The notes: generated by a model from the letters alone, not told the origin. A stretch of DNA of 64,000 nucleotides from Escherichia coli (GCF_041886205.1 NZ_CP169030.1); one strand, 5' to 3'; counted from the first letter of the stretch, positions 9,466-31,707 are shown. A program made the numbers and translations.

Positions 9466-9520
9466 AGGTTACATGTAACACAGGTGTAAAACCGCCAAAG
9501 CCCGGCGTAAGCCGGTACGG
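9466..9520. repeat. Copy 1 of ~55-bp imperfect direct repeat (GGTTACATGT ... GTAAAACCGCC-AAGCCCGGCGTAAGCCGGTACGG) with internal CCGGC-GTAA-GCCGG hairpin
   Basis: Near-identical sequence recurs at 31651-31707 in the same orientation. Confidence 0.5.
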
Positions 9521-9566
9521 TCGTCCGAATATCACCAGTCCCACTCCGGCCCTGCGAGGCCATGTG

Positions 9567-9604
9567 GGGGGAACCGCAGAATTCGGAAAAAATCGTACGC
9601 TAAG
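9567..9604. repeat. Left 38-bp terminal inverted repeat of the Tn1721-like transposon
   Basis: GGGGGAACCGCAGAATTCGGAAAAAATCGTACGCTAAG. Confidence 0.8.
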
Positions 9605-9755
9605 CTAACGGTGTTCTCGTGACAGCTCTTTGACTAGGCTTTCTAAGGCCATTCTGATAGCCCTGACTTCCTGAAAAGCCATGGCTAAAATTTGTGCGGC
9701 TAAAAGGGATAACCGATGGTAAAGTAAGTTATCCCTGTCGAGATACTGAAAAGCG

Positions 9756-11333
9756 TTATCCTCGTTTTTCCCAAAACTGTTTTGCCAGTTCGCTCAGAGC
9801 GCTAGTTAACTGAGCGACAGATTTCGCACTTTGCAAATTATTCTGCCCGGTCTGTACATTGGTATCAGCAGCATCGCGTATATTGATAATACTGCGGTTT
9901 ATGTCTTCACTTACTGCTCCCTGCTGCTCGACCGCAGTCGCTATTTGCGCGTTCATGTCGGTAATTTCGTTAACGCGTTGGCCAATTCCATCAAGAGCTG
10001 TAGCTGCTTCCTCTGCGTGAGCTACACTCGTGTGCGCTTGCCGACTACTTTGCTCCATGACTGTAACAGCGGATTGCGCTCGCTCTTGTAGAGCGCTGAT
10101 CATGCTTTGAATATCCGTTGTCGATTGCTGTGTGCGAGCAGCAAGACTGCGAACCTCATCGGCGACAACAGCAAAACCACGCCCCTGCTCACCAGCACGC
10201 GCGGCCTCAATTGCTGCGTTGAGTGCCAACAAATTCGTTTGCTCGGCGATCCCTCGTATAACGTCAAGAACTTTTGATATCTCGTTACTTTGACCTTCAA
10301 GCTCATGAATAACCTGAGTGGCTTGCCTAATTTCACCTTCAAGGGCAGTGATTGACTGGCTTGTGTGGGCTACCAGACGCTGGCCAGATGCCGTCTCAGT
10401 GTCTGCTCTTCCGGCCGCATCTGCAGCATGCTGTGCATTGCTCGCAACCTCTTGAATGCTTGCCACCATTTGGTTTACTGCCGTTGCTATTTGATCTGTC
10501 TCTGCCTGCTGCTCAACTGTAAGTACATTGCTTGACTCAATATCCTTTAGTAGGCCTCGGGTGTGTTCGCTAAGCCGATTTGATGCATCACCTATGCGAC
10601 CTACTATGGCGCCTGTTTCAGCTTGCATCATTCGTAAAGCAAACTCTATTTGGCCAAACTCATCGGTGCGCCCAGTGTAGAGGGATTGACTTAATGGGTT
10701 ATTGGAAATATTCTTGGCTCTTTCAACCAGTCTTCCAAGAGGAGAGAGAATAGCCAAAACACTAACAGAGCTTAAGCTTCCTGACATTAAAGTGGCTAAC
10801 AATAAGCTGCTTATTGATGTATCAGTAAGCATGCCGGCAGCCATTGCGCTTGATATAATACTACCCCATATGAGCAAGAGTATTTTCACGGAAAAGCTAG
10901 CAGCCAATTTCGGCCTCGCGGCCTTCCCGCTTCTCAATTGAGCATATAATTTTTCCGCAGCCAAAACCTGCTCAGGTTCAGGCTTGGTCCTTACAGACTG
11001 GTATTCAACAATCGAACCATTCTTAGCTATTGGCGTTACATAAGCACTTACCCAATAGTGGTCGCCATTTTTACAGCGATTTTTTACTAGCCCCATCCAT
11101 GAGCGGCCAGATTTTAATGTACTCCACATATGCTCAAATGCAGCAGGCGGCATATCTGGGTGTCTTACGATGTTGTGAGGCTGGCCTAATAGTTCTTCCT
11201 CAGTGAAACCACTGATTTTAATGAAGTCAGGATTAACGTACGTGATATGGCTTTGAGGGGAGGTAGTCGAAAGAATATTGGCATCTTTTGGGAGTTCTAA
11301 GTTTCGACCCGTCACTGGTAAATTCTGGCGCAT
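9756..11333 (-). CDS. Methyl-accepting chemotaxis protein-like protein with PAS domain (Tn1721 orfI-type cargo)
   Basis: 525 aa; N-terminal PAS-like region, central TM segments, C-terminal MCP signalling domain ([31 protein letters not shown]). Confidence 0.8.
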
Positions 11334-11620
11334 AAGAACCTCAAGGGTTGGCTGTTTTATTTTATTGTTTTCGGCATTAAGCCCAATTTCTTGAGCGTTA
11401 CGATAAAGCTAGCATGGAAACGATAGGTGCAAGCAAGTTAAGGGTTGCATCGCGCATGTCAATCTAGGCTATACCCTAACTTGATGTCAGGCAGGGCCGC
11501 GCCGCTTCGTCAGAATAGAGTCTGCTTTCCCATTTTTTGACACATGCCCGCGAAGGTTATAGATTTCAGCCTGACAGAAATGGGCTTTGAGGCACAACGG
11601 AACAGAAAGTGCACTTAAGC

Positions 11621-11625
11621 CGCCT
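11621..11625. repeat. 5-bp target-site duplication (CGCCT) flanking IRt of the integron
   Basis: CGCCT immediately outside IRt; the same pentamer lies immediately outside the second IRi at 22464-22468. Confidence 0.6.
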
Positions 11626-11650
11626 TGTCATTTTCAGAAGACGACTGCAC
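11626..11650. repeat. IRt (25-bp terminal inverted repeat at tni end of Tn402-like integron)
   Basis: TGTCATTTTCAGAAGACGACTGCAC. Confidence 0.8.
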
Positions 11651-11766
11651 CAGTTGATTGGGCGTAATGGCTGTTGTGCAGCCAGCTCCTGACAGTTCAA
11701 TATCAGAAGTGATCTGCACCAATCTCGACTATGCTCAATACTCGTGTGCACCAAAGCGAGGTGAGC

Positions 11767-13446
11767 ATGGCGACGGACACCCCACGGATTCCAGAACAAG
11801 GCGTGGCCACTCTGCCTGATGAGGCTTGGGAGCGTGCGCGCCGTCGTGCGGAGATCATCAGTCCGTTGGCGCAGTCGGAGACGGTCGGGCACGAAGCGGC
11901 CGATATGGCGGCTCAGGCGCTGGGCTTGTCTCGGCGCCAGGTATACGTTCTGATCCGGCGTGCCCGGCAAGGCAGCGGCCTCGTGACGGATCTGGTGCCC
12001 GGCCAGTCCGGTGGAGGTAAAGGTAAGGGGCGCTTGCCGGAACCGGTCGAGCGCGTCATCCACGAGCTACTGCAAAAGCGGTTCCTGACCAAGCAGAAGC
12101 GCAGCCTAGCGGCCTTTCACCGCGAAGTCACTCAGGTGTGCAAGGCTCAAAAACTGCGAGTGCCGGCGCGCAATACCGTGGCCTTACGGATCGCTAGCCT
12201 TGACCCGCGCAAGGTCATCCGCCGGCGGGAAGGCCAGGATGCCGCTCGTGACCTACAAGGTGTGGGCGGCGAGCCTCCTGCCGTGACCGCGCCGCTGGAG
12301 CAGGTGCAGATAGACCATACGGTCATCGACCTGATCGTGGTCGATGACCGCGACCGGCAACCTATTGGCCGCCCGTACCTGACCCTCGCCATCGACGTGT
12401 TCACCCGCTGCGTGCTCGGCATGGTCGTCACGCTGGAAGCGCCGTCTGCCGTTTCGGTTGGCCTGTGCCTCGTGCATGTCGCCTGCGACAAGCGCCCTTG
12501 GCTGGAAGGACTGAACGTGGAAATGGATTGGCAGATGAGCGGCAAGCCCTTGCTGCTCTACCTAGACAACGCGGCCGAGTTCAAGAGCGAGGCCCTGCGC
12601 CGGGGTTGCGAGCAGCATGGCATCCGGCTGGACTATCGCCCGCTGGGACAGCCGCACTATGGCGGCATCGTGGAACGGATCATCGGCACGGCGATGCAGA
12701 TGATTCACGACGAACTGCCGGGAACGACCTTCTCCAACCCTGACCAGCGCGGCGACTACGATTCCGAAAACAAGGCCGCCCTGACGCTGCGCGAGCTAGA
12801 GCGCTGGCTCACATTGGCGGTCGGCACCTACCACGGTTCGGTGCACAACGGCCTGCTCCAACCGCCGGCCGCGCGCTGGGCCGAGGCCGTGGCGCGTGTC
12901 GGCGTACCGGCCGTCGTCACACGCGCTACTTCGTTCCTGGTCGATTTTCTGCCGATCCTCCGGCGCACGCTGACCCGCACCGGCTTTGTCATCGACCACA
13001 TCCACTACTACGCCGATGCGCTCAAGCCGTGGATTGCGCGGCGTGAACGCTGGCCGTCCTTTCTGATCCGGCGCGATCCGCGCGACATCAGCCGTATCTG
13101 GGTCCTGGAACCGGAGGGACAGCATTACCTGGAAATTCCCTACCGTACCTTGTCGCATCCGGCTGTCACCCTCTGGGAACAACGGCAGGCGCTGGCGAAA
13201 CTGCGGCAGCAAGGGCGCGAACAGGTGGATGAGTCGGCGCTGTTCCGCATGATCGGCCAGATGCGTGAGATTGTGACCAGCGCGCAGAAGGCCACACGCA
13301 AGGCGCGGCGTGACGCGGATCGCCGCCAGCACCTCAAGACATCAGCTCGGCCGGACAAGCCCGTTCCGCCGGATACGGATATTGCCGACCCGCAGGCAGA
13401 CAACTTGCCACCCGCCAAACCGTTCGACCAGATTGAGGAGTGGTAG
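11767..13446 (+). CDS. tniA: TniA transposase (Tn402/Tn5053 family, DDE)
   Basis: 559 aa starting MATDTPRIPEQG; ORF-track start at 11731 is an upstream in-frame Met. Confidence 0.9.
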   Translation: MATDTPRIPEQGVATLPDEAWERARRRAEIISPLAQSETVGHEAADMAAQALGLSRRQVYVLIRRARQGSGLVTDLVPGQSGGGKGKGRLPEPVERVIHELLQKRFLTKQKRSLAAFHREVTQVCKAQKLRVPARNTVALRIASLDPRKVIRRREGQDAARDLQGVGGEPPAVTAPLEQVQIDHTVIDLIVVDDRDRQPIGRPYLTLAIDVFTRCVLGMVVTLEAPSAVSVGLCLVHVACDKRPWLEGLNVEMDWQMSGKPLLLYLDNAAEFKSEALRRGCEQHGIRLDYRPLGQPHYGGIVERIIGTAMQMIHDELPGTTFSNPDQRGDYDSENKAALTLRELERWLTLAVGTYHGSVHNGLLQPPAARWAEAVARVGVPAVVTRATSFLVDFLPILRRTLTRTGFVIDHIHYYADALKPWIARRERWPSFLIRRDPRDISRIWVLEPEGQHYLEIPYRTLSHPAVTLWEQRQALAKLRQQGREQVDESALFRMIGQMREIVTSAQKATRKARRDADRRQHLKTSARPDKPVPPDTDIADPQADNLPPAKPFDQIEEW

Positions 13447-13448
13447 CC

Positions 13449-14357
13449 GTGGACGAATATCCCATCATCGACCTGTCCCACCTGCTGCCGGCGGCCCAGG
13501 GCTTGGCCCGTCTTCCGGCGGACGAGCGCATCCAGCGCCTTCGCGCCGACCGCTGGATCGGCTATCCGCGCGCAGTCGAGGCGCTGAACCGGCTGGAAGC
13601 CCTTTATGCGTGGCCAAACAAGCAACGCATGCCCAACCTGCTGCTGGTTGGCCCGACCAACAATGGCAAGTCGATGATCGTCGAGAAGTTCCGCCGCACC
13701 CACCCGGCCAGCTCCGACGCCGACCAGGAGCACATCCCGGTGTTGGTCGTGCAGATGCCGTCCGAGCCGTCCGTGATCCGCTTCTACGTCGCGCTGCTCG
13801 CCGCGATGGGCGCGCCGCTGCGCCCACGCCCACGGTTGCCGGAAATGGAGCAACTGGCTCTGGCACTGCTGCGCAAGGTCGGCGTGCGCATGCTGGTGAT
13901 CGACGAGCTGCACAACGTGCTGGCCGGCAACAGCGTCAACCGCCGGGAATTCCTCAACCTGCTGCGCTTCCTCGGCAACGAACTGCGCATCCCGTTGGTT
14001 GGGGTAGGCACGCGCGACGCCTACCTAGCCATCCGCTCCGATGACCAGTTGGAAAATCGCTTCGAGCCGATGATGCTGCCGGTATGGGAGGCCAACGACG
14101 ATTGCTGCTCACTGCTGGCCAGCTTCGCCGCTTCGCTCCCGCTGCGCCGGCCTTCCCCAATTGCCACGCTGGACATGGCTCGCTACCTGCTCACACGCAG
14201 CGAGGGCACCATAGGGGAACTGGCGCACTTGCTGATGGCGGCGGCCATCGTCGCCGTGGAGAGCGGCGAGGAAGCGATCAACCATCGCACACTCAGCATG
14301 GCCGTTTACACCGGACCCAGCGAGCGGCGGCGGCAATTCGAGCGGGAACTGATGTGA
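13449..14357 (+). CDS. tniB: TniB NTP-binding transposition protein
   Basis: Walker A VGPTNNGKS, probable GTG start at 13449 giving MDEYPIIDL. Confidence 0.85.
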   Translation: MDEYPIIDLSHLLPAAQGLARLPADERIQRLRADRWIGYPRAVEALNRLEALYAWPNKQRMPNLLLVGPTNNGKSMIVEKFRRTHPASSDADQEHIPVLVVQMPSEPSVIRFYVALLAAMGAPLRPRPRLPEMEQLALALLRKVGVRMLVIDELHNVLAGNSVNRREFLNLLRFLGNELRIPLVGVGTRDAYLAIRSDDQLENRFEPMMLPVWEANDDCCSLLASFAASLPLRRPSPIATLDMARYLLTRSEGTIGELAHLLMAAAIVAVESGEEAINHRTLSMAVYTGPSERRRQFERELM

Positions 14358-15571
14358 AGCCTGCGCCGCGCTGGCCGCTGCATCCCGCCCCGAAAGAAGG
14401 CGAGGCGCTGTCCTCATGGCTCAACCGCGTGGCCCTTTGCTATCACATGGAGGAGCCCGACCTGCTGGAGCACGATCTTGGTCACGGCCAGGTCGATGAC
14501 CTGGACACCGCGCCACCACTCTCGCTGCTGGCGTTGCTTTCCCAGCGGAGCGGCATCGAGCTGGACCGGCTGCGCTGTATGAGTTTCGCCGGATGGGTGC
14601 CTTGGCTACTGGACAGCCTTGATGACCAGATTCCAGACGCCTTGGAAACCTATGCGTTTCAGCTCTCGGTGTTGCTGCCAAGACTCCGCCGTAAGACGCG
14701 ATCCATCACGAGCTGGCGTGCCTGGCTGCCCAGCCAGCCGATAAACCGCGCCTGTCCGCTCTGCCTGAGCGATCCGGAGAACCAAGCCGTACTGCTCGCG
14801 TGGAAGCTGCCCCTGATGCTGAGCTGCCCGCTGCATGGCTGCTGGCTGGAATCCTATTGGGGCGTGCCAGGGCGGTTTCTCGGCTGGGAGAACGCCGACG
14901 CCGAACCGCGCACCGCCAGCGACGCGATTGCGGCGATGGACCAGCGTACCTGGCAGGCACTGACAACCGGTCACGTGGAGCTGCCGCGCCGACGCATCCA
15001 CGCCGGATTGTGGTTTCGACTTCTTCGCACGCTGCTCGATGAGCTGAACACCCCGCTTTCCGCGTGCGGAACCTGCGCGGGGTATCCCCGCCAAGTCTGG
15101 GAAGGCTGCGGGCATCCGCTGCGTGCTGGGCAAAGTCTGTGGCGACCGTATGAAACCCTGAATCCGATAGTACGGTTACAGATGCTGGAGGCGGCGGCAA
15201 CGGCAATCAGCTTGATTGAGGTGAGGGACATCAGCCCGCCAGGCGAGCAGGCAAAGCTATTCTGGTCCGAGCCCCAAACCGGGTTCACCAGTGGCCTGCC
15301 GACGAAAGCGCCGAAGCCCGAGCCCATCAATCACTGGCAGCGTGCAGTCCAGGCCATCGACGAGGCCATCATTGAAGCGCGACACAACCCCGAGACGGCA
15401 CGCTCGCTGTTCGCGTTGGCTTCCTATGGTCGGCGCGATCCCGCTTCCTTGGAACGGTTGCGCGCCACCTTCGTGAAGGAAGGCATCCCGCCGGAATTTC
15501 TGTCACATTACCTGCCTGATGCACCCTTTGCATGTCTTAAACAAAATGACGGGTTAAGTGACAAATTTTGA
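14354..15571 (+). CDS. tniQ: TniQ transposition protein
   Basis: 405-aa frame starting at GTG overlapping tniB stop (VKPAPRWPLHPAPKEGEALSSWLNR); the ORF-track entry 14084-15571 is an upstream extension of this frame. Confidence 0.8.
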   Translation: MKPAPRWPLHPAPKEGEALSSWLNRVALCYHMEEPDLLEHDLGHGQVDDLDTAPPLSLLALLSQRSGIELDRLRCMSFAGWVPWLLDSLDDQIPDALETYAFQLSVLLPRLRRKTRSITSWRAWLPSQPINRACPLCLSDPENQAVLLAWKLPLMLSCPLHGCWLESYWGVPGRFLGWENADAEPRTASDAIAAMDQRTWQALTTGHVELPRRRIHAGLWFRLLRTLLDELNTPLSACGTCAGYPRQVWEGCGHPLRAGQSLWRPYETLNPIVRLQMLEAAATAISLIEVRDISPPGEQAKLFWSEPQTGFTSGLPTKAPKPEPINHWQRAVQAIDEAIIEARHNPETARSLFALASYGRRDPASLERLRATFVKEGIPPEFLSHYLPDAPFACLKQNDGLSDKF

Positions 15572-15617
15572 CGGATAGAGCTTTCCGGCTCACACTGTCA
15601 CATAATCGAACGTATAC

Positions 15618-16256
15618 GTGACGGGTGAAAAGGTGCTGATCGGCTACATGCGGGTATCGAAGGCGGACGGATCCCAGTCCACCAATTTGCAACGCGATGC
15701 GCTCATCGCCGCTGGTGTGAGCCTTGCGCACCTTTACGAGGATCTGGCCTCGGGCAGGCGCGATGATCGCCCAGGGTTGGCTGCTTGCCTGAAGGCGCTT
15801 CGTGAAGGGGACACGCTGATCGTGTGGAAGCTCGATCGGCTTGGCCGTGATCTGCGCCACCTGATCAACACCGTGCACGACCTAACTGCGCGTAGCGTGG
15901 GCCTGAAGGTCCTGACCGGTCACGGTGCGGCGGTCGACACGACGACTGCCGCCGGCAAGCTTGTGTTCGGTATTTTTGCCGCGCTGGCCGAGTTCGAGCG
16001 TGAGTTGATTTCCGAGCGAACAGTCGCTGGACTTATCTCGGCGCGCGCTCGCGGCAGGAAAGGGGGGCGCCCCTTCAAGATGACCGCCGCCAAGCTACGC
16101 CTGGCGATGGCCAGCATGGGGCAACCGGAAACCAAGGTGGGCGATCTCTGCGAAGAACTCGGGATTACCCGGCAGACGCTCTACCGGCACGTGTCGCCCA
16201 AGGGCGAACTGCGGCCAGACGGCGTAAAGCTGCTCTCCCTCGGTTCAGCCGCATAA
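15618..16256 (+). CDS. tniR: TniR/TniC serine resolvase of Tn402-like element
   Basis: Serine recombinase motifs (IGYMRVSKADGSQ; C-terminal HTH); exact start uncertain. Confidence 0.8.
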   Translation: MTGEKVLIGYMRVSKADGSQSTNLQRDALIAAGVSLAHLYEDLASGRRDDRPGLAACLKALREGDTLIVWKLDRLGRDLRHLINTVHDLTARSVGLKVLTGHGAAVDTTTAAGKLVFGIFAALAEFERELISERTVAGLISARARGRKGGRPFKMTAAKLRLAMASMGQPETKVGDLCEELGITRQTLYRHVSPKGELRPDGVKLLSLGSAA

Positions 16257-16353
16257 ATGGAGGCGACCTGGAACGGGGCGCTGTTCAGTGCGGCAACGAT
16301 CCGATTACCGGTGTCGACCCAGAGCAGCCGTAGAGCTTTTGGGAAAGCTGTCG

Positions 16354-16448
16354 TTCAACGTTTGACGTGAGGGGCCGCCGTAGCGGCGAAGCCGCGAAGG
16401 GAACCCGCAAGCGCAGCTTGTGGGCGGTCCCTCTCGACGGAATGGTTA
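16354..16448 (-). other. Probable attC recombination site of the qac gene cassette
   Basis: Minus-strand inverse core ATCTAAC (plus 16441-16448) and core GTTGAAC (plus 16354-16360) bracket ~95 bp downstream of the qac stop; boundaries approximate. Confidence 0.4.
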
Positions 16449-16460
16449 GATGCGACCGTT

Positions 16461-16793
16461 TTAGTGAACACTTGCCTTAGATAGCAAGTTGAGCACAGCA
16501 ACGCCGCTGATAATGAAGCCGACACCAACAAATCCCCACATATCTAGTTTTTGACCATGCAAAACCCATGCAATCGCAGTGACCAAGACGATCCCGAGGC
16601 CCGACCAAACTGCGTAGGCGATTCCAACAGGAATCGATTTGAGTGTCAGCGACAGGAAATAAAAAGCAGCAGCGTATCCCGCTACGACGATAAAAGACGG
16701 TACTAACCTAGTAAAGCCCTCACTAGACTTGAGCGCAGAGGTTGCAATGACCTCAAAAATAATGGCCGTAGCCAGAAATAACCAATTTTTCAA
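16461..16793 (-). CDS. Small multidrug resistance (SMR) quaternary ammonium compound efflux protein, qacH/qacL-type gene cassette
   Basis: 110-aa frame [27 protein letters not shown]... with probable TTG start; the ORF-track entry 16461-17102 is an artefactual upstream extension through attI1. Confidence 0.75.
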
Positions 16794-16888
16794 AATATTT
16801 CTCCATGGAGTTCCGCGAAGAAATTTTAGGTTCGATTTAAGAAAAAAAACAGTCTTGTTGCTGGCCGAAATTTGTGCGCACAGCAAAG

Positions 16889-16965
16889 CATCTAACTTTG
16901 TTTTAGGGCGACTGCCCTGCTGCGTAACATCGTTGCTGCTCCATAACATCAAACATCGACCCACG
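16889..16965. other. attI1 site (copy 1) with cassette junction GTTAGATGC on minus strand
   Basis: Sequence CCCTAAAACAAAGTTAGATGC (minus strand) directly upstream of intI1; boundaries approximate. Confidence 0.6.
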
Positions 16966-17031
16966 GCGTAACGCGCTTGCTGCTTGGATGCCCGAGGCAT
17001 AGACTGTACAAAAAAACAGTCATAACAAGCC

Positions 17032-18045
17032 ATGAAAACCGCCACTGCGCCGTTACCACCGCTGCGTTCGGTCAAGGTTCTGGACCAGTTGCGTGAGCGC
17101 ATACGCTACTTGCATTACAGTTTACGAACCGAACAGGCTTATGTCCACTGGGTTCGTGCCTTCATCCGTTTCCACGGTGTGCGTCACCCGGCAACCTTGG
17201 GCAGCAGCGAAGTCGAGGCATTTCTGTCCTGGCTGGCGAACGAGCGCAAGGTTTCGGTCTCCACGCATCGTCAGGCATTGGCGGCCTTGCTGTTCTTCTA
17301 CGGCAAGGTGCTGTGCACGGATCTGCCCTGGCTTCAGGAGATCGGAAGACCTCGGCCGTCGCGGCGCTTGCCGGTGGTGCTGACCCCGGATGAAGTGGTT
17401 CGCATCCTCGGTTTTCTGGAAGGCGAGCATCGTTTGTTCGCCCAGCTTCTGTATGGAACGGGCATGCGGATCAGTGAGGGTTTGCAACTGCGGGTCAAGG
17501 ATCTGGATTTCGATCACGGCACGATCATCGTGCGGGAGGGCAAGGGCTCCAAGGATCGGGCCTTGATGTTACCCGAGAGCTTGGCACCCAGCCTGCGCGA
17601 GCAGCTGTCGCGTGCACGGGCATGGTGGCTGAAGGACCAGGCCGAGGGCCGCAGCGGCGTTGCGCTTCCCGACGCCCTTGAGCGGAAGTATCCGCGCGCC
17701 GGGCATTCCTGGCCGTGGTTCTGGGTTTTTGCGCAGCACACGCATTCGACCGATCCACGGAGCGGTGTCGTGCGTCGCCATCACATGTATGACCAGACCT
17801 TTCAGCGCGCCTTCAAACGTGCCGTAGAACAAGCAGGCATCACGAAGCCCGCCACACCGCACACCCTCCGCCACTCGTTCGCGACGGCCTTGCTCCGCAG
17901 CGGTTACGACATTCGAACCGTGCAGGATCTGCTCGGCCATTCCGACGTCTCTACGACGATGATTTACACGCATGTGCTGAAAGTTGGCGGTGCCGGAGTG
18001 CGCTCACCGCTTGATGCGCTGCCGCCCCTCACTAGTGAGAGGTAG
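17032..18045 (+). CDS. intI1: Class 1 integron integrase IntI1 (copy 1)
   Basis: 337-aa tyrosine recombinase [49 protein letters not shown]... Confidence 0.95.
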
Positions 18046-18222
18046 GGCAGCGCAAGTCAATCCTGGCGGATTCACTACCCCTGCGCGAAGGCCATCGGTG
18101 CCGCATCGAACGGCCGGTTGCGGAAAGTCCTCCCTGCGTCCGCTGATGGCCGGCAGCAGCCCGTCGTTGCCTGATGGATCCAACCCCTCCGCTGCTATAG
18201 TGCAGTCGGCTTCTGACGTTCA

Positions 18223-18247
18223 GTGCAGCCGTCTTCTGAAAACGACA
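18223..18247. repeat. IRi (25-bp inverted repeat at intI1 end), copy 1, internal
   Basis: GTGCAGCCGTCTTCTGAAAACGACA; followed by TTTGA rather than the CGCCT seen outside IRt. Confidence 0.8.
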
Positions 18248-18329
18248 TTTGAACCGGGAACCTTCCCTTTTTGGCTAGGCGTGAAACAATGGTCATTTTC
18301 CCTATACCCAAAATGACCAGGAGGCCCGC

Positions 18330-20990: not shown

Positions 20991-20998
20991 ACAGATAT

Positions 20999-22463: not shown

Positions 22464-22485
22464 CGCCTTCAACCAAGGAGACATC

Positions 22486-23046
22486 GTGCAGGGGCACCGC
22501 ATCGGCTACGTCCGGGTCAGCAGCTTTGACCAGAACCCGGAACGCCAGCTGGAACAAACCCAGGTGAGCAAGGTGTTCACCGACAAGGCATCGGGCAAGG
22601 ACACCCAGCGCCCCCAGCTCGAAGCGCTGCTGAGCTTCGTCCGCGAAGGCGATACAGTGGTGGTGCACAGCATGGATCGGCTGGCCCGCAACCTCGATGA
22701 CCTGCGTCGCTTGGTACAGAAGCTGACTCAGCGCGGCGTGCGCATCGAGTTCCTGAAGGAGGGCCTGGTGTTCACTGGCGAGGACTCGCCGATGGCCAAC
22801 CTGATGCTGTCGGTGATGGGGGCCTTCGCTGAGTTCGAGCGCGCCCTGATCCGCGAGCGGCAGCGTGAGGGCATCGCCTTGGCCAAGCAGCGTGGCGCGT
22901 ACCGGGGCCGCAAGAAAGCCCTGTCCGATGAGCAGGCTGCTACCCTGCGGCAGCGAGCGACGGCCGGCGAGCCCAAGGCGCAGCTTGCCCGCGAGTTCAA
23001 CATCAGCCGGGAAACCCTCTACCAGTACCTCCGCACGGACGACTGA
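22486..23046 (+). CDS. tnpR: TnpR resolvase (Tn21/Tn1721 subfamily)
   Basis: 186-aa serine recombinase MQGHRIGYVRVSSFDQNPERQ... Confidence 0.9.
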   Translation: MQGHRIGYVRVSSFDQNPERQLEQTQVSKVFTDKASGKDTQRPQLEALLSFVREGDTVVVHSMDRLARNLDDLRRLVQKLTQRGVRIEFLKEGLVFTGEDSPMANLMLSVMGAFAEFERALIRERQREGIALAKQRGAYRGRKKALSDEQAATLRQRATAGEPKAQLAREFNISRETLYQYLRTDD

Positions 23047-23049
23047 CAC

Positions 23050-26016
23050 ATGCCGCGTCGCTTGATCCTCTCGGCCACGGAGCGGGACACCCTGCTTGCG
23101 CTGCCGGAAAGCCAGGATGACCTGATCCGCTACTACACCTTCAACGACTCCGACCTGTCGCTGATCCGCCAGCGACGCGGCGACGCCAACCGCCTCGGCT
23201 TCGCCGTGCAGCTCTGCCTGCTGCGCTACCCCGGTTACGCGCTGGGAACCGACAGCGAGCTGCCCGAGCCGGTCATCCTGTGGGTGGCGAAGCAAGTCCA
23301 GGCCGAGCCGGCGAGCTGGGCAAAGTACGGCGAGCGCGACGTGACCCGTCGCGAGCATGCCCAGGAACTGCGCACCTACCTGCAACTGGCCCCGTTCGGC
23401 CTGTCCGACTTCCGCGCCCTGGTGCGCGAGCTAACCGAGCTGGCCCAGCAGACCGACAAAGGCTTGCTGCTGGCCGGTCAGGCCCTGGAGAGCCTACGGC
23501 AGAAACGACGCATCCTGCCGGCGCTGAGCGTGATTGACCGGGCCTGCTCGGAAGCCATTGCGCGAGCCAATCGGCGGGTCTACCGCGCCCTGGTCGAACC
23601 ACTCACGGACTCGCATCGGGCCAAGCTGGACGAGCTGTTGAAGCTCAAGGCCGGCAGCAGCATCACCTGGTTGACCTGGCTGCGCCAGGCACCGCTGAAA
23701 CCCAACTCTCGGCACATGCTGGAACACATCGAGCGGCTGAAGACATTTCAGTTGGTGGACTTGCCCGAAGGCCTGGGCCGGCACATCCACCAGAACCGCC
23801 TGCTCAAGCTGGCCCGCGAGGGTGGGCAGATGACGCCCAAAGACCTCGGTAAGTTCGAGCCGCAGCGCCGCTACGCGACCCTGGCCGCCGTGGTGCTGGA
23901 GAGCACCGCGACCGTGATCGATGAGCTGGTCGATCTGCATGACCGCATCCTGGTCAAGCTGTTCAGCGGCGCGAAGCACAAGCATCAGCAGCAGTTCCAG
24001 AAGCAGGGCAAGGCGATCAACGACAAGGTGCGCCTGTACTCCAGGATCGGCCAGGCGCTGCTGGAAGCGAAGGAAAGCGGCAGCGACCCCTATGCCGCCA
24101 TCGAGGCGGTGATTCCCTGGGACGAGTTCACCGAGAGCGTCAGCGAGGCCGAGCTGCTGGCCCGGCCGGAAGGCTTCGACCACCTGCACCTGGTCGGCGA
24201 GAACTTCGCCACCCTGCGCCGTTACACGCCGGCCTTGCTGGAGGTGCTGGAACTGCGCGCCGCGCCGGCCGCGCAAGGCGTGCTGGCAGCCGTGCAGACC
24301 CTGCGTGAGATGAACGCCGACAACCTGCGCAAGGTGCCGGCCGATGCACCCACGGCCTTCATCAAGCCGCGCTGGAAGCCGCTGGTGATCACCCCGGAAG
24401 GCCTCGACCGGAAATTCTACGAAATCTGCGCCCTGTCCGAGCTGAAGAACGCCCTGCGCTCCGGCGACATCTGGGTCAAGGGCTCGCGGCAGTTCCGCGA
24501 CTTCGACGACTACCTGCTGCCGGCCGAGAAGTTCGCCGCACTCAAGCGCGAGCAGGCCCTGCCCCTGGCGATCAACCCGAACAGCGACCAGTACCTGGAA
24601 GAGCGTTTGCAGCTGCTGGACGAGCAGTTGGCCACCGTCACCCGCCTGGCCAAGGACAACGAGCTGCCCGATGCCATCCTCACCGAGTCAGGGCTGAAAA
24701 TCACCCCGCTGGATGCGGCGGTGCCGGATCGGGCGCAGGCGCTGATCGACCAAACCAGCCAGTTACTGCCGCGCATCAAGATCACCGAACTGCTGATGGA
24801 CGTGGACGACTGGACGGGCTTCAGCCGCCACTTCACCCACTTGAAGGACGGGGCCGAGGCCAAAGACAGGACGTTGCTGCTGTCCGCAATCCTCGGTGAT
24901 GCGATCAACCTCGGGCTGACCAAGATGGCCGAGTCGAGCCCCGGCCTGACCTACGCCAAGCTGTCCTGGCTGCAAGCCTGGCACATCCGCGACGAAACCT
25001 ATTCGGCGGCCTTGGCCGAGCTGGTCAACCACCAGTATCGCCACGCCTTTGCCGCCCACTGGGGCGACGGCACGACCTCATCCTCCGATGGCCAGCGCTT
25101 CCGCGCGGGTGGCCGGGGCGAGAGCACCGGGCACGTCAACCCGAAGTACGGTAGCGAGCCGGGACGGCTGTTCTATACCCATATCTCCGACCAGTACGCG
25201 CCGTTCAGCACCCGCGTGGTGAATGTCGGCGTCCGCGATTCCACCTATGTGCTCGACGGCCTGCTGTACCACGAGTCCGACCTGCGGATCGAGGAGCACT
25301 ACACCGACACGGCCGGCTTCACCGATCACGTCTTTGCCCTGATGCACCTGCTAGGCTTCCGCTTCGCGCCGCGCATCCGCGACCTCGGCGAAACCAAGCT
25401 GTACGTGCCGCAGGGCGTGCAAGCCTACCCGACGTTGCGCCCGCTGATCGGCGGCACCCTGAACATCAAGCACGTGCGTGCCCACTGGGACGACATCCTG
25501 CGCCTGGCCAGCTCGATCAAGCAGGGCACCGTCACCGCCTCGCTGATGCTGCGCAAGCTCGGCAGCTACCCGCGCCAGAACGGACTGGCCGTGGCCCTGC
25601 GCGAGCTGGGCCGGATCGAGCGCACGCTGTTCATCCTGGACTGGCTGCAAAGTGTTGAACTGCGCCGCCGCGTGCATGCCGGCCTGAACAAAGGTGAGGC
25701 GCGCAACTCGCTGGCCAGGGCGGTGTTCTTCAACCGCCTTGGGGAAATCAGGGATCGGAGCTTCGAGCAGCAGCGCTACCGGGCCAGCGGCCTCAACCTG
25801 GTGACGGCGGCTATCGTGCTGTGGAACACGGTGTACCTGGAACGCGCCACCCAGGGGTTGGTCGAGGCCGGCAAGCCGGTGGACGGCGAGCTGCTGCAAT
25901 TCCTGTCGCCGCTGGGCTGGGAGCACATCAACCTAACCGGCGATTACGTCTGGCGGCAGAGCCGCAGACTGGAAGACGGGAAGTTTCGGCCCTTACGGAT
26001 GCCCGGAAAACCTTAG
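23050..26016 (+). CDS. tnpA: TnpA transposase (Tn3 family, Tn21/Tn1721 subfamily)
   Basis: 988-aa ORF ending inside the terminal inverted repeat. Confidence 0.9.
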
Positions 26017-26049
26017 CGTACGATTTTTTCCGAATTCTGCGGGCTCCCC
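26012..26049. repeat. Right 38-bp terminal inverted repeat of the Tn1721-like transposon
   Basis: Reverse complement reads GGGGAGCCCGCAGAATTCGGAAAAAATCGTACGCTAAG. Confidence 0.8.
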
Positions 26050-26190
26050 TTGTTTGTACGATTCGATATCGATACTGCGTAATGGCCGGTACTTCCCTGT
26101 ACCCAGCTTAAGATTATTACGCCAGACATCATCCCCATTAAGATTGATATGCTCCCAGCCCAACGGCGAAAGGTGAGTGCAGTTGGTCAT
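26050..26190 (-). pseudogene. 3' remnant of a second Tn3-family tnpA, inverted and abutting the outer end of the transposon IR
   Basis: Minus-strand translation [31 protein letters not shown] parallels the TnpA C-terminus [31 protein letters not shown]. Confidence 0.5.
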
Positions 26191-26319
26191 TAATCGGGAG
26201 CTTTTTTCGTTTCAGGGACTCAATGGCTCTTTCTATGTATACCGTGTTCCATAATTTTTCACTCCGTTGAAAACGGAGTACGTGGCAATCGTATCAGTGA
26301 TACAGTTGAGGCAATTGAC

Positions 26320-26520
26320 ACGAATACCCTTTCCGGTATTGATGGCATCAGTTGAAGAGCATGTTATTCTCTTGAGCTATTTGTGCCACACAGGCGCGGG
26401 GGGCGTTTTTTACCACGGGGACTTCGGGCATAAAAACAAGGGGCCGCAAACACGGCCCTTAATTCAGATCTAACCGGGTACGCTATCTGTTGCCCTGGAA
26501 AATTGATCTGACAACTCAGT
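26320..26520. mobile_element. Rearranged IS66-family remnant
   Basis: 26330-26430 resembles the region around 34460-34640 of the intact IS66-family copy; 26466-26513 resembles, in opposite orientation, 32307-32350. Confidence 0.45.
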
Positions 26521-26567
26521 AAAGATCAATACGGTTCTGACGAGCAGCTTACCTGCCTGTTTGCGTT

Positions 26568-27863
26568 TCAGAGCTTATTCTCTGCTGTCTGATAGCCACG
26601 GCTGAGACGAACAAACAGCATTGCCGTTGCGGCGAGTCCGCATAGCGCCGCGCACATGAGCCACCACCCCGGAGAACTCTTATCGCCGGTCAACTGGACC
26701 AATGCGGTGGAGATAGCAGGCGTCAGGCCGCCGAAAATCGCAGTCGCAAGACTAAAGGCCAGCGAAAAACCCACGGTTCGGACATAAACCGGCATCACTT
26801 CGGTCAGGGCCGCCACCATCGCACCGTTATACATGCCAAAAAAGAACGAGAACCAGAGCAGCACCAACGTCATGCGGGTGAAGTCAGGGGCAGCGGTAAG
26901 CCAGTTCATCACCGGCCAGGTGGTGACGAGGGCGAGCAAGGTGATGCCCATCAGCACCGGGCGTCGCCCGATCCGATCAGAGATAGCGCCGCCAATCGGC
27001 AGCCAGATGAAGTTAGAAATCCCTACCAGCATGGTGACAACCAGGCTGTCACGTGCGCTCAGGTTCAACACCGTTCTCCCGTAAGTGGGGGTATAGACAG
27101 TAATAAAATAAAAGGTCGTGGTCGTCATCGCTACCAGCAGGGTACCCGCGGTGATGATGCGCCAGTTTTTAGCAATGGTGGTAAAAATTTCCCGGGTGTC
27201 CGGACGGTGTTTACGTTGTAAAAAGGCTTCAGTTTCCTGTAGCGAACGTCGAAGAACAAAAATCAGCGGAATAATCATGCAGCCAATGAAGAACGGGATT
27301 CGCCAACCCCATTCGGAGATTTCATCGTGTCCCAGCGTGACATTCAGACCGTAGCCGATCAGCGCGGCGACGACAATCGCCACCTGCTGGCTGGCCGATT
27401 GCCAACTGGTGTAAAAGCCTTTATTGCCTGGTGTAGCGATCTCAGAAAGATAAACAGAGACGCCGCCCAGTTCGACGCCAGCAGAAAATCCCTGTAGCAG
27501 ACGCCCCACCAGGACCAGCACGGGAGCCAGCAGGCCGATAGTCTGATAACCCGGCACGAGGGCGATGAGCAGCGTGCCGCAGCCCATAATCGCCAGGGTG
27601 ACCATCAGCCCTTTCCGTCGGCCGATTCTGTCGATATATGCGCCCAACACCACGGCCCCGATAGGGCGCATTAAAAATCCGGAGCCAAAAACGGCAAAAG
27701 TAAGCATTAATGCGGCAAACTCACTTTCGGCAGGAAAAAACGTCTTTGCGATATAAGTGGCGTAAAAACCAAACAGGAAAAAATCGAACTGTTCGAGAAA
27801 ATTACCGCTGGTCACACGCAGTATTGCGCCGAACGTGCCAGCGCGCGATGGTTGTTGAGTCAT
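26568..27863 (-). CDS. tcuC: TcuC-like MFS transporter (tricarballylate/citrate uptake)
   Basis: 431-aa 12-TM MFS protein immediately downstream of tcuB. Confidence 0.7.
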
Positions 27864-27917
27864 TGAAGTTGCTCCACTGTCTTATCAGAATTATGTATAG
27901 AGGTAAGAGTTTGCGGG

Positions 27918-29057
27918 TTAGTCGCCTGAGACCCCCGCCTGTTTTCCACGTCGCTTCTCAATCGCCCATTTGAGTAAAGACGCGCAGCGGTAAAATCCGT
28001 GGGCAAATTTTCCGTATGGAATGGTCAAAAAAAGCGCCATGACCACGCCAAGATGGATGGCAAGCAGGATCCCCATCCATGAGGTGTCTCTTCCCGCCAG
28101 CAAACCTATACCGGTCAGGCTGGTCAGGAGCAGCAGTAAAATAAAACCGCGATCCATCGGTTTCTGTCGCGCGTCGCCATGCAGTGGCGAGCGCTTAAGG
28201 TTTAACCACAGCAGGCCTGCCGGGCCGACAATTAAACCGATTCCTCCGAGCGTGCCAAGCATGACCGGCACGCTGAAGAACGGGTAGGGGGCTTCCCAAC
28301 CGGCGAAGTAGTGGTAACCCGTCGCCACCACGGTCGCGGCGAAACAGAGCATAAAGCCGTAGAAGGTGAAATGGTGGAAACGACGACGCATCAATGTGAA
28401 AGCATCGTCCGCCTCGTTGCAGCCTTTGCCATGACCGCCGTCGAGGTATTTCAGCGTCAGCGCGTTGTGCGACGCTTCGGCAATTTCCGCCGGACGCGGC
28501 CCGACGTGAGAGATCTCGCGCCAGAAGCGGATCACCCCTGCCATTAGTAAACCGATCGCCAGCATGAAAACCGATCCAAACATCCATGCCAGCAGGTTGT
28601 GCGGGAAGATTTGGTAGAAATCACCGGCCAGCGGCGGATGGAGTAGCGATCCCTTCATCCCCATCGCGAGGAGTAAAAAGAGGATCAGACTAAAGACCAG
28701 TGCCAGCGTCACGGTGACGCCAGCCTGGCGATACAGCGCCCCGAAGGCCGCCGGTTGCGCGTAGTGTTGATACGTTTCCAGACGCACTTCCGCCATTGCT
28801 TTCGGCACGTTAATCGCAAACTCATGGGGTGGAGCATACTGGCAGGCGTGCAGGCAGGCGCCGCAGTTATGGCACAGGTTTGCCAGATAGTTAATGTCGG
28901 CTTTGCCAAATTCCAGTCGCTGAGTCATCGCCGGGAACACGGCGCAAAACCCTTCGCAATAGCGACAGGCATTACACACCTGCATCACCCGCTCGACTTC
29001 AGCTTCTGGCTCGGTGAGAATTTTGGCCTCGATGATCAGTTTTTCAAGCTGCTTCAT
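27918..29057 (-). CDS. tcuB: TcuB membrane iron-sulfur protein
   Basis: N-terminal [11 protein letters not shown] and [11 protein letters not shown] cysteine clusters followed by TM segments; probable start MKQLEKL, ORF-track frame extends 27 codons upstream. Confidence 0.75.
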
Positions 29058-30447
29058 GATGCGCCTCCTTACGTGCTGCCTGCGCGGCTTCTTTACCTGC
29101 GATGCGACCAAACGTGGTGCCGATGGACATGCCGACACCGGCGGTATAGCCCTTGCCCAGTACGTTGCCAGCCATCATCTCACCGGCAACGAACAGGTTA
29201 CGGCTGGGGGTGCCTGCGAAGTGAACCGCAGCGTGTTCATTCACTTTCAGTCCCAGGTAGGTAAAGGTGATCCCCGGTCGCAGGGCATAACCGTAGTAAG
29301 GGGGCGTATTAATAGGCCGCGCCCAGTGCGTTTTCGGTGGCGTCAGGCCCTGAGTCGCGCAGTTATCCAGCTTCGTGTGATCAAACTGACCCGGCTGACA
29401 GGCCTGATTGTAGTGCTCCACGGTATGGGTAAAGCGTTCGGGATCCAGCCCCAACTGGCGGGCCAGTTCACTCAGCGTATTGGCCTGTGCGCCGGGGAAA
29501 ACCGGCGGCATAAAGTGACCGATCGCTTTGCTGTCGATAATGGAGTAGCCAATCTGCCCCGGCTGTTGGGCAACCAGACGCCCCCAGATGGCATAGCGTT
29601 TCGGCCAGAAATCTTCGCCTTCATCGTAAAAGCGCTCCGCGTCCCGGTTGACTACCACACCCAGTGAGACGCAATCCACGCGGGTACAAATGCCGCCGTC
29701 GTACAACGGAGCCCGGGCATCAATCGCCACACAGTGGGACTGAGACGGATCGCCGATAATGTCAGCACCGGCATCGATCATAAACTTGAGCAAGACGCCC
29801 TGATTAAAGCGGGTGCCGCGAATGAGGAAGTTATCGGCTGGCCATTCGCCACGAGCGTTCTCTCCCCAGGCGTCGCGCAGCCATTCGCGGTTGGATTCAA
29901 ATCCACCGGCGGCGAGTACGCAGGCTTTCGCCTCAATGCGCTCGTGGCCTGCCAGGGCTGCGATGAATTCGCCGTTGTGCAATTCAAGTGCCTGTACCGG
30001 CGTGTTGTAGCGAATCTGTACCCCCAGCTTTTCTGCGCTGCGGTAATAGGCGTTCACGAGGGCTTTACCGCCGCCCATGAAGAAGGCATTGGTACGCGCC
30101 ACGTGCAGCGCGCCAGAGAGCGGAGGCTGAAAATTAACGCCGTGATGACGCATCCAGTCGCGACACTGGGAAGAGGTCCGGATCACCAGTCGCGCCAACG
30201 CTTCATTGGTATTGCCTTCGGTGACACGCCAGAGATCCTGCCAGAACTCCTCTTCGGGATAACTCTCGACCAGCACATCCTGTGGCGCATCGTGCATACA
30301 GCGTAAATTGCGCGTGTGTTGGGAATTCCCGCCGCGCCATTCCCGGGGCGCAGCCTCTAACAGCAGCACGGAAGCTCCTGCCTCACGGGCGGTTAAGGCG
30401 GCACATAACGCGGCATTACCACCGCCAATCACCAGTACATCAACCAT
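29044..30447 (-). CDS. tcuA: TcuA FAD-dependent tricarballylate dehydrogenase
   Basis: 467 aa, N-terminal dinucleotide-binding motif [17 protein letters not shown]. Confidence 0.8.
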
Positions 30448-30543
30448 CGTCTACTCCATTACCATTTAACTATTTGTTAAATTTGTAATTGAAATGTATA
30501 CGTATGATTGTATGGGCGCTATAACGAATAGCTAAAGATGGGT

Positions 30544-31470
30544 TTAGGGAGCGTAAAGGGTTGCGCCCGGCCAATGACCGGTTTCAACGAGTTCACGCAT
30601 GACTTTTGTGAGTATTACGCGGACTGCAAGACCGGCAGGGGTGAGTTCATCGTCCGACAGACTGACCAGAAAATTGGGGCGGCTGAGGACAGGATTATGG
30701 ACGCCGATCACTCTTAGCGCTTCCCTCTCAAGATGCGAAATGGCTGCACCGGGTTGCAGCGTGGCGCCGAGTCCGCTGCTAACGGCGCGCATCAGTAACG
30801 TCAGGCCGTCAATTTCCGTGGCAATATCGACCTTCAGTCCGTGTTCCTGACAGATGGCTTCCAGTCTGCCACGCAGGCCGTGTCCCTGGCTTGGCATGAT
30901 CAGGGGAATATTCGCCAGTTGAGCAGGCGTTATGGTGTCATCCGGAATATCCGCCAGCAGCTCGTGTGTGCCAATCAGAAACAGGCGCTCCTCAAGAACC
31001 GGTCTGGCGTTCCAGCGCAGGATTTTCTCTTTTTGAAACACGACCGCCAGATCAATCTGGCGCGTGTTGATCATCCGTTCCAGATTACCCGACAGGCTTT
31101 CCACCACATGCAGGCGAACGTCGGCGTAATGTTCCCGCATGGCATGAATAAACGGTATTCCCAGGATGGAGGCGGTGCTGGGGGCCATGCCGACGCTGAC
31201 GTGTCCAGAGAGACGCGCCTCGCGAGAGGCCAAGATCGCATCATCGGCGTGGCGTAGCGCCAATTGTGCCTGCGAGTAAAAAGCCAGACCGGCGTTAGTG
31301 GGCGTGACGCCGCGCGAGGTTCGTTGCAACAGACGAATGGAGAGTTCATTCTCCAGCCTCGTCATCTGTTGACTAAGTGCTGAGACACCGATACCGAGAT
31401 CAAGCGCCGCAATGCCCATACTACCGGTTTCCACAATACGAACAAAATAACGTAGCTGGCGAAGTTCCAT
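30544..31470 (-). CDS. tcuR: LysR-family transcriptional regulator (TcuR-like)
   Basis: 308 aa, N-terminal LysR HTH MELRQLRYFVRIVETGSMGIAALDLGIGVSALSQQMTRLE. Confidence 0.7.
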   Translation of the reverse strand: MELRQLRYFVRIVETGSMGIAALDLGIGVSALSQQMTRLENELSIRLLQRTSRGVTPTNAGLAFYSQAQLALRHADDAILASREARLSGHVSVGMAPSTASILGIPFIHAMREHYADVRLHVVESLSGNLERMINTRQIDLAVVFQKEKILRWNARPVLEERLFLIGTHELLADIPDDTITPAQLANIPLIMPSQGHGLRGRLEAICQEHGLKVDIATEIDGLTLLMRAVSSGLGATLQPGAAISHLEREALRVIGVHNPVLSRPNFLVSLSDDELTPAGLAVRVILTKVMRELVETGHWPGATLYAP

Positions 31471-31650
31471 TGCGATTCTCCGGAGAAGGCTGGGATATTT
31501 ACATTAAATCAACATGCTGTCAGAAGAAAGCACTAAGTAGAGAATGGCGCGCATAACAAAACAACCGACAGGTTGACTTTTCAGAATAGGGGCAGTTTGG
31601 TGATCGTCACCAGTATATGCAGCGTCAGCTGCATGGAAGGCGGCACGCTG

Positions 31651-31707
31651 TGGTTACATGTGATACCGGAGTAAAACCGCCGAAGCCCGGCGTAAGCCGG
31701 TACGGAT
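31651..31707. repeat. Copy 2 of the ~55-bp imperfect direct repeat
   Basis: GGTTACATGTGATACCGGAGTAAAACCGCCGAAGCCCGGCGTAAGCCGGTACGG, compare 9466-9520. Confidence 0.5.

Follow-up and report, generated by a model that had tools for sequence, protein, structure and literature searches.

The window, a 64-kb (64,000-nt) stretch of an Escherichia coli plasmid, contains minus-strand genes for a RelE/ParE toxin (8811–9086) and a ribbon-helix-helix (RHH) antitoxin (9086–9370), both mapped from the annotation of an identical stretch in JML285_P2. They are followed by a plus-strand segment, B1 (9436–9567), and this in turn by a Tn1721-like/class 1 integron composite transposon (9568–26050) with terminal inverted repeats (IRs) at 9568–9605 and 26013–26050. 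The cargo of the composite comprises an MCP gene, tniABQ, qacG2, two copies of intI1, tet(M), tnpR and tnpA. Its ends lack a 5-bp target duplication, and ~260 bp of the older sequence are deleted. Next come the remnant of an older Tn3-family transposase (26051–26200, minus strand; C-terminal ~45 codons, ending GKYRPLR) and, at 26553–31589 on the minus strand, a tcu unit (tcuC, 26568–27863; tcuB; tcuA; tcuR, 30544–31470) that matches its counterpart in IncHI1 plasmids, R27 among them, at 96% identity. The tcu unit directly adjoins a second plus-strand segment, B2 (31622–31869), with neither an IS nor an IR at the junction (31589–31601).

Beyond B2 lies a replication region. Two ter-like (Tus-binding) sites predicted by sequence, TAGTTACAACA at 31910–31920 (minus strand) and TGTTGTAACTA at 32050–32060 (plus strand), form an inverted pair between B2 and oriR, where a DnaA box (34991–34999, minus strand) precedes an IncFII-family repA1 (35175–36071, minus strand). 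The RepA1 protein has 92–99% identity with proteins annotated as IncFII RepA in thousands of plasmids. An IS66-family element in oriR (32263–34962, minus strand), flanked by an 8-bp target duplication, CCTTATGA, at 32255–32262 and 34963–34970, splits the replicon of B2; it is not part of the repeat and is absent from JML285_P2.

The first-pass annotation had described imperfect direct repeats of ~55 bp around the 22-kb block of accessory genes. The motif in question occurs at 9466–9520 and 31651–31707, both on the plus strand, with 49 of 57 aligned positions identical (86%), and each occurrence has the hairpin CCGGC-GTAA-GCCGG. As had been noted, the left motif lies just outside the transposon, ending 47 bp before the start of the IR at 9568, and the right one just past tcuR, starting 181 bp beyond its start codon (31470). 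A 35-nt core, GTAAAACCGCC(A/G)AAGCCCGGCGTAAGCCGGTACGG, is identical at 34 of 35 positions between the two. Allowing up to 3 mismatches, the core is found at these two sites only in the 64-kb window; 100 dinucleotide shuffles gave 0 matches, and none is expected by chance. The direct repeats are real, but the homology is not confined to ~55 bp. It spans a 248-bp segment, B, delimited by alignments, of which the motif is the best-conserved part; it draws notice because no other portion of B is as constrained. B2 is a complete copy, whereas only the first 132 of the 248 bp of B1 are left in the window, because the transposon sits inside it. The block is likewise bracketed as described but composite, consisting of a 5.6-kb tcu interval and a later Tn1721-like insertion. 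A tcu-only intermediate, with the 5.6-kb interval and no Tn1721-like element, is found in pMB3176_2 and other plasmids.

We searched related plasmids for an empty site using a chimeric query composed of the left flank, one motif and the right flank. This query matched as one contiguous piece, and at least 901 records were found to carry one B between the RHH/RelE genes and oriR. Gene order in three of the empty-site plasmids is RelE-RHH-B-ter-oriR-repA1, and the RelE/RHH pair is a backbone module that normally adjoins a single B. The motif is part of the backbone in these plasmids, in keeping with the earlier suggestion of a backbone sequence; it is not an IS end. B is very common, being carried by >5,000 plasmids, yet it occupies a fixed place in the replicon, in single copy; the worry that the motif might be a common dispersed element was borne out as to number and not as to dispersal. 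In replicons of E. coli, Shigella pINV, IncK2/Z and Pantoea, the repA1 stop is followed by the exact core at a distance of 760–982 bp. Searches with nhmmer recovered B, in constant orientation, in 8 of 9 replicon tails, including those of pCD1, Citrobacter, Enterobacter and two Klebsiella plasmids, where it lies 0.65–1.1 kb past repA1 (E values of 1e-23 to 3e-33); in the remaining tail, that of a pSLT-like replicon, nhmmer did not detect it. B is thus the distal tail of IncFII-family replicons, which run repA1, oriR, ter pair, B, toxin/antitoxin operon.

Rfam covariance models gave no match in 31400–36600 at E values up to 1, and BLAST of B against 50,697 phage genomes gave none either. Genome annotations ignore B. 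In a scan of genome collections, matches beyond Pantoea and Yersinia were mostly on short contigs, in unrelated taxa, with the look of IncF contamination, and one, on a GC-rich Terriglobia contig, was a chance match.

The two copies in the window have different affinities. FIC-type homology at B2 begins at ~31601, and the B2 allele matches ordinary FIC/pINV-type replicon tails along its whole length: it is the tail of the resident FIC/FII replicon. B1 is 81% identical to B2 overall, in a mosaic pattern (62–100% by 40-nt block) whose longest perfect match is 23 nt. B1 and B2 are different natural alleles and not copies of each other. A query joining the RHH gene to B1 matched 1,567 plasmids, and roughly 1,000 or more carry the B1 allele together with the 60 bp that follow it and an old Tn3-family IR. 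In pMB3176_2, this 38-bp IR (GGGGTCCGCCTGGAAAAAGGAAAATATCCCACGCTAAG) precedes the transposase remnant, 60 bp beyond the end of B1. Direct inspection of pCFS3246-1 showed an identical B1, the 60 bp and the Tn3-type IR with no adjoining tcu unit. The B1 allele is also present, intact with RHH/RelE, in a Shigella plasmid, and in an Escherichia albertii RepFIC replicon B and the same 60 bp run unbroken into ter-oriR-repA1. B1 is the stub of a second, diverged replicon tail, still joined to its RHH/RelE neighbours. The proposal that a backbone sequence was duplicated when the block was acquired does not survive these comparisons, since the copies are different alleles (81%) and the B1 allele occurs without an adjoining tcu in pCFS3246-1.

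We also considered whether B1 and B2 bracket the resistance region of MDR IncF plasmids as a general rule. In pCFS3246-1 the B1 arm leads into an MDR region and on to traD, and no other B lies within 50 kb; the rule was therefore rejected.

The first-pass annotation had also raised the possibility of a site used by a site-specific recombinase. On that account the core hairpin would be an att-, res- or dif-like site through which the block integrates and excises by means of a dedicated recombinase, leaving hybrid sites at its ends. In its favour, the two copies flank accessory DNA in direct orientation, relatives have empty sites with a single copy, the core is nearly invariant and partly palindromic, and allele mosaics in some plasmids switch near the core. 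Backbone homology, however, extends to both sides of the core, for ~190 bp plus the 60 bp rightward from B1 and for 50–75 bp leftward from B2, which crossover at a short core does not predict. B1 with its own right flank occurs without the block in pCFS3246-1, breakpoints lie 30–190 bp off the core and vary from plasmid to plasmid (offsets of +250 bp for pMB3176_2, +47 bp for the window and +30 bp for E. albertii), and the element is a fixed replicon part in >5,000 plasmids. Nor does any recombinase regularly sit next to the element, whose neighbours are RHH/RelE, tcuR and ter/oriR; the sole recombinases are those of the transposon and integron themselves. We regard a dedicated site as very improbable; given the two-sided homology, the off-core breakpoints and the lack of a dedicated recombinase, neither it nor a fresh duplication is supported. 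By eye, one arm of a Xer/dif-like site in B was partly similar and no second arm was seen; this candidate was dropped.

Direct repeats of a few hundred bp around an insert are also the classic outcome of Campbell-type integration, in which a circular tcu molecule with its own B would have entered by a single homologous crossover within B, and diverged copies are expected if the incoming molecule had the other allele. Such a crossover should leave reciprocal chimeras. Instead, B1 is an established allele, intact with RHH/RelE in tcu-less and Shigella plasmids, and B2 fits ordinary FIC/pINV-type tails over its full length. Moreover, B1 leads into a replicon-tail extension and a transposon end, not into DNA of the tcu unit. 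These points make single-crossover entry improbable, if less so than a dedicated site.

The position of the repeats near the transposon ends, bracketing accessory DNA, could suggest a footprint of transposition: a duplicated target site, or the termini of some unrecognised mobile element that carries the block. A target duplication is incompatible with 248 bp at 81% identity lying 47 bp from the IR; the copies are direct, not inverted, and the true transposon ends were located separately. Together with the motif's place in the backbone of empty-site plasmids, the allelic divergence refutes this explanation, to which we give almost no weight.

The repeats are best explained as two alleles of one replicon-tail element, a stub and a live tail brought together by fusion of F-type plasmids and then trimmed, with B most likely serving as a G-site; we put the probability of this reading at roughly 80%. 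Two F-type backbones would have been joined by replicative-transposition cointegration, or by recombination in shared transposon sequence, and then trimmed. The second replicon tail was severed 60 bp past B by an old Tn3-family transposon, whose IR and transposase remnant persist in relatives, and the Tn1721-like element, which entered later than tcu, cut the stub again, inside B. The accessory DNA therefore sits between the stub of a dead replicon and the tail of a live one. We infer the fusion history from its end products; no parental pair or cointegrate for the F-type fusion was identified. The two copies of B around accessory genes are what plasmid fusion and transposon activity ordinarily leave behind, and not a new recombination site.

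This arrangement resembles that of mosaic multireplicon IncF plasmids, in which a second IncFII-family replicon is reduced by a Tn3-family transposon beside accessory DNA. The F plasmid, with a RepFIC remnant interrupted by Tn1000, is an example. Compared with that remnant, only the extreme tail (B and 60 bp) survives here, with no repA or cop sequences, and the transposon is not Tn1000, as its IR differs. A further independent stub, in E. albertii p1RM9973, ends at a different Tn3-type IR.

With pMB3176_2-type plasmids and E. albertii p1RM9973, two independent B stubs end at different Tn3-type IRs. The B tail may conceivably be a recurrent landing hotspot for Tn3-family elements, a homology patch for module swapping between F-type plasmids, or a cis element that has not been described and differs from the published G-site, though we consider this unlikely. 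If true, a swap patch would help explain why IncF accessory and resistance regions accumulate exactly between the toxin/antitoxin genes and oriR.

What B does in its replicon was approached through its folding. In a MAFFT alignment of 13 versions of B the stems fell out of register owing to unequal stem and loop lengths, and each sequence was folded separately in place of pair counting. An architecture of three hairpins (H1, H2 and H3) was found in 12 of the 13 (z scores of –3.2 to –5.3); across versions, the stems of H1 and H2 have changed in a compensatory way. In B1, H1 lies at 9434–9449 and H3 at 9502–9515; in B2, H1 lies at 31617–31634, the H2 arms at 31639–31643 and 31677–31681, and H3 at 31687–31700. 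C(C/T)CTG follows H3 by 33–40 nt in all 13 versions, as GCCCTG at 9549–9554 in B1 and at 31735–31740 in B2. Most E. coli alleles, like the Citrobacter and Enterobacter versions, have CTG directly after H3; the versions from Pantoea, Klebsiella and pCD1 lack it, and B1 and B2 have TACGG there. The position, orientation and three-hairpin single-stranded DNA architecture of B are kept across Escherichia, Shigella, Klebsiella, Citrobacter, Enterobacter, Pantoea and Yersinia replicons.

B lies 360–400 bp beyond the 188-bp oriR and ~765 bp beyond the repA1 stop. In all replicons the hairpins and CTG are on the strand opposite repA1, which would be the template for leading-strand synthesis heading away from repA1. 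Leading-strand synthesis in R1/NR1 reportedly starts ~380–400 bp downstream of oriR, near the 3′ end of repA4, at a primase-only G-site, to which we liken B. Because its position, polarity and architecture are kept across enterobacterial genera, B is most likely such a site: a candidate R1/R100-type, primase-recognised G-site for the start of the leading strand, an assignment drawn from sequence and in part from the reported start position. The R1/NR1 (R100) basic replicon belongs to the same family, with DnaA box, ter pair and B arranged alike; the likeness is one of layout and position, and both window alleles have TACGG where most alleles have TACTG. The window plasmid also differs in having the element twice, one copy being a truncated stub without an origin. 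The repA4 region reportedly holds ter sites and is needed for stable maintenance (PMC4398462), and the repA4 ORFs of pEntH10407 end ~750 bp from the repA1 stop (PMC2762410).

The oric of phage G4 has a similar layout, with template-strand hairpins and then CTG, where the primer starts. In the G4 record the primer maps to 3970–3997, and the hairpin GGACGGCG-AAAGC-CGCCGTCC is followed by CTACTG. The string CGGCG(A/T)AAGCCG is common to G4 oric and B, as is TACTG in most F-plasmid alleles, whereas hairpin sequences and spacing differ. Local alignment of B with G4 oric was not significant, 130 of 500 shuffles scoring as well, so homology to G4 cannot be claimed and the analogy is one of layout only.

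Alternatively, the core could be mainly an intrinsic minus-strand terminator that keeps read-through transcription from repA1/oriR out of the toxin/antitoxin operon, and not a priming site. A terminator scan flagged CGCCGGGCTTCGGCG followed by GTTTTAC (31692–31678) and ATGCGCAGATGCGCAT followed by TATTTGCC (9449–9434), both on the minus strand, and the polarity fits because repA1 and the RHH gene are on that strand. The T-run, however, is short (4 T) and unconserved, and Klebsiella, pCD1 and FIC versions keep the hairpins without a T tract. Nor would a terminator be expected to have core stem sequences that are invariant, and not merely complementary, or a CCTG kept at fixed spacing. We consider termination as the main role unlikely. 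Conservation of the hairpins is compatible with either strand, as DNA or as RNA, and cannot say which form is functional.

The repeats mark no new mobile element or recombination system, and the tcu/transposon block should therefore not be annotated as an excisable island. As direct repeats, the two copies could occasionally recombine and delete the block, as a by-product and not a function; with a perfect match of 23 nt, they are a weak substrate for spontaneous loss of the accessory DNA between them. In IncFII-family replicons the 248-bp tail segment serves as a fixed landmark, and its stubs reveal past plasmid fusions. Its three-hairpin single-stranded DNA architecture, shared across genera, and the CCTG at a fixed distance provide a sequence-level definition of a probable leading-strand priming site.

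Two copies of a ~55-bp motif lie in the same orientation at 9466-9520 and 31651-31707, next to the left transposon IR and past tcuR, as the first-pass annotation had placed them. Across the 55–57 bp originally delimited, 49 of 57 positions are identical. A 35-nt core, GTAAAACCGCC(A/G)AAGCCCGGCGTAAGCCGGTACGG, differs by a single mismatch between the copies. Even with 3 mismatches tolerated, the core has only these two sites in the window, and 100 dinucleotide-preserving shuffles yielded no match. The window belongs to an F-type conjugative plasmid, with long tra ORFs at 40–64 kb and an IncFII-family repA1 (35175-36071, minus strand) whose product shares 92–99% identity with IncFII RepA as annotated in thousands of plasmids. 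The left copy sits just upstream of a ribbon-helix-helix (RHH)/RelE toxin-antitoxin pair; the right copy has tcuR on one side and an inverted ter-like pair preceding oriR on the other. IncF backbone of a very common type flanks both copies, the left flank being matched by 1,567 plasmids and the right by >5,000.

An earlier suggestion was to look in related plasmids for a single-copy motif at an empty site. We joined the left flank, a single motif and the right flank into one chimeric query, and at least 901 plasmids matched it in one contiguous alignment. Gene order in empty-site plasmids L004–L006 is RelE–RHH–single motif–ter–oriR–repA1, with ~910 bp separating the RHH gene from repA1. The motif is thus an ordinary part of the backbone, normally present in one copy. 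To delimit the duplicated segment, we aligned an empty-site plasmid with pMB3176_2, a relative that carries the tcu interval and no transposon. This segment, B, is 248 bp long, from GCG(T)CA..GCATG through ..CTTACGAGCGTGTA, and the motif is the best-conserved block within its 5' half. At full length, the left (B1) and right (B2) copies are 81% identical (75, 88, 68, 63, 95, 95 and 100% in successive 40-nt blocks). In the window, a Tn1721-like element sits within B1, of which 9436-9567 is all that is left; B2 occupies 31622-31869.

The two copies have different histories. The arm comprising RHH and B1 is matched by 1,567 plasmids; most of these matches have 95–99% identity and stop at the equivalent of window position 9567. 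Direct inspection of one of these, pCFS3246-1, revealed the B1 allele, a 60-bp extension and a Tn3-family IR (GGGGTCCGCCT.GAAAAAGGAAA...), all as in pMB3176_2, with no tcu genes beside B1. Beyond that IR is what remains of the C-terminus of a Tn3-family transposase (ending ...GKYRPLR). In E. albertii p1RM9973, B and the same 60 bp continue unbroken into ter, oriR and repA1 of the RepFIC replicon. So B1 plus the 60 bp is an FIC-type replicon tail cut by a transposon, and it is older than the tcu block. B2, over its full length, is an ordinary FIC/pINV-type allele. The proposal that a backbone sequence was duplicated when the block was acquired thus holds as to backbone and fails as to duplication, the copies being distinct alleles, one of which predates tcu. 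Campbell-type integration, which would leave reciprocal chimeric alleles, is not supported: a crossover within B at insertion should have produced such chimeras, and none was seen among the B1 and B2 alleles. Nor do the data favor the idea that the repeats are a site used by a site-specific recombinase, with homology confined to the core. Backbone homology extends on both sides of the core in both copies, breakpoints vary between cases, and a cognate recombinase is not adjacent to the copies. Target-site duplication was separately ruled out by the length of the repeats and their divergence.

We conclude that plasmid mosaicism very probably (roughly 85%) brought the two replicon-tail alleles together. 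Two F-type backbones would have been joined and then trimmed. One would have given RelE–RHH–B1, the rest of its replicon being lost at the Tn3-family insertion, and the other tcu–B2–ter–oriR–repA1. Replicative transposition by Tn3-family elements yields such cointegrates, as does recombination within shared transposon sequence. The joining step is inferred from its end products. E. albertii p1RM9973 also has a partial second B (~1440–1580), which stops ~30 nt past the core at a Tn3-family-type IR, GGGGTCAGTCTGGAGAGCGGGAATTTTTGTACATTAAG, and lies in direct orientation to the intact RepFIC B, ~2 kb away. This stub is an independent case of a replicon tail cut by a Tn3-family end, at a different IR, which shows that the process recurs. 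Bracketing by B1 and B2 does not hold generally: past its B1 arm, pCFS3246-1 carries an MDR region followed by traD, and it lacks another B within 50 kb.

The interval between the copies includes the tcu unit (tcuRABC, 26553-31589), which abuts B2 and is 96% identical to its counterpart in IncHI1 plasmids (R27, pHCM1-like). One boundary falls 15 bp beyond the stop codon of tcuC, the other 119 bp upstream of tcuR; no IS or IR is visible at either end (26553, 31589). The whole 5.6-kb tcu interval, with both junctions, is common to ~11 IncF plasmids. About 350 bp (26200-26552) separate the unit from the old transposase remnant. The 16.5-kb Tn1721-like/integron composite joined later than tcu. Its terminal IRs differ slightly, GGGGAACCGCAG... 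versus GGGGAGCCCGCAG... (9555-9610, 26005-26070), and its ends lack a 5-bp target duplication. Compared with pMB3176_2, the window has lost ~260 bp, namely the remainder of B1, the 60 bp beyond it and the 38-bp IR of an older element. Together, the missing target duplication and this loss suggest an adjacent deletion mediated by the composite. A tet(A)/tetR module follows tnpA in the near-identical plasmid JML285_P2 and is absent from the window. Two intI1 ORFs of equal length (17032-18045 and 21248-22261) lie either side of tet(M) (18969-20903), a ribosomal-protection gene typically found in Gram-positive bacteria; its embedding between duplicated class 1 integrase genes is unusual.

The resident FIC/FII replicon is itself interrupted. 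A 2.7-kb IS66-family element with three minus-strand ORFs (32263-34962) lies inside oriR, flanked by an 8-bp target duplication, CCTTATGA, at 32255-32262 and 34963-34970, and ~20 bp from a DnaA box (34991-34999). JML285_P2, otherwise near-identical, lacks this element. The insertion may impair the replicon, and replication may depend on another one. Plasmids related to this one have been typed as IncFIA. CopA antisense RNA is expected upstream of an IncFII-family repA1; an Rfam E-value scan of 31400-36600 gave zero matches, CopA included.

In many genera B belongs to the replicon, downstream of repA1. Counting from the repA1 stop, the exact core lies 760–766 bp farther on in E. coli, Shigella pINV and an IncK2/Z plasmid; in Pantoea the distance is 982 bp. 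Profile searches placed B 0.65–1.1 kb past repA1, with orientation kept, in Y. pestis pCD1, Citrobacter, Enterobacter and two Klebsiella plasmids (E 1e-23 to 3e-33); they did not find it in a pSLT-like plasmid. Near-identical IncF replicon-tail pieces also occur on short contigs from assemblies labelled Streptomyces morookaense, Lachnospiraceae, Clostridiales, Sporosarcina and Collinsella, probably through contamination or misbinning of plasmid DNA. Among divergent versions, CGCCG-N4-6-CGGCG-N3-4-GCCGG, then C(C/T)CTG, then GCTTA at the distal end are essentially invariant. When each of 13 versions was folded by itself as ssDNA, 12 gave the same three-element structure (z –3.2 to –5.3). Hairpin H1 (ATGC..GCAT) occurs as four different, mutually compensatory stems; H2 is GGCGG/CCGCC or GGCGCC/GGCGCC, by lineage; H3 is CCGGC/GCCGG, with a conserved CCTG 33–40 nt past it.

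What might B do? In R1/NR1, leading-strand synthesis begins at a G-site, which primase recognises on its own; this site lies ~380–400 bp downstream of oriR, close to the 3' end of repA4. Plasmid G-sites reportedly have conserved blocks in common, and their likeness to phage G4 is limited and near the primer start. In an undisrupted plasmid, a 188-bp oriR is followed 360–400 bp farther on by B, the strand of which would be the template for a leading strand heading away from repA1. The core lies ~765 bp from the repA1 stop, versus ~750 bp for the ends of the repA4 ORFs annotated in pEntH10407 (PMC2762410). The repA4 region reportedly contains the ter sites and is required for maintenance (PMC4398462). 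The annotated primer start of G4 has a hairpin followed by CTACTG, a layout matching B, although the sequence likeness is not statistically significant. Right after H3, both window copies have TACGG and no CTG, and a CTG there is not kept in distant lineages. Position near the repA4 end, the reports on the ter/repA4 region and the G4 layout fit a G-site, and we lean slightly towards B being a putative R1/R100-type G-site for leading-strand start. That the core is a minus-strand terminator is a weaker reading, because the T tract behind it is short and lacks conservation. Although real, the repeats are ordinary, and mark neither a mobile unit nor a recombination site. They are two alleles of a kind of replicon part that was already known.
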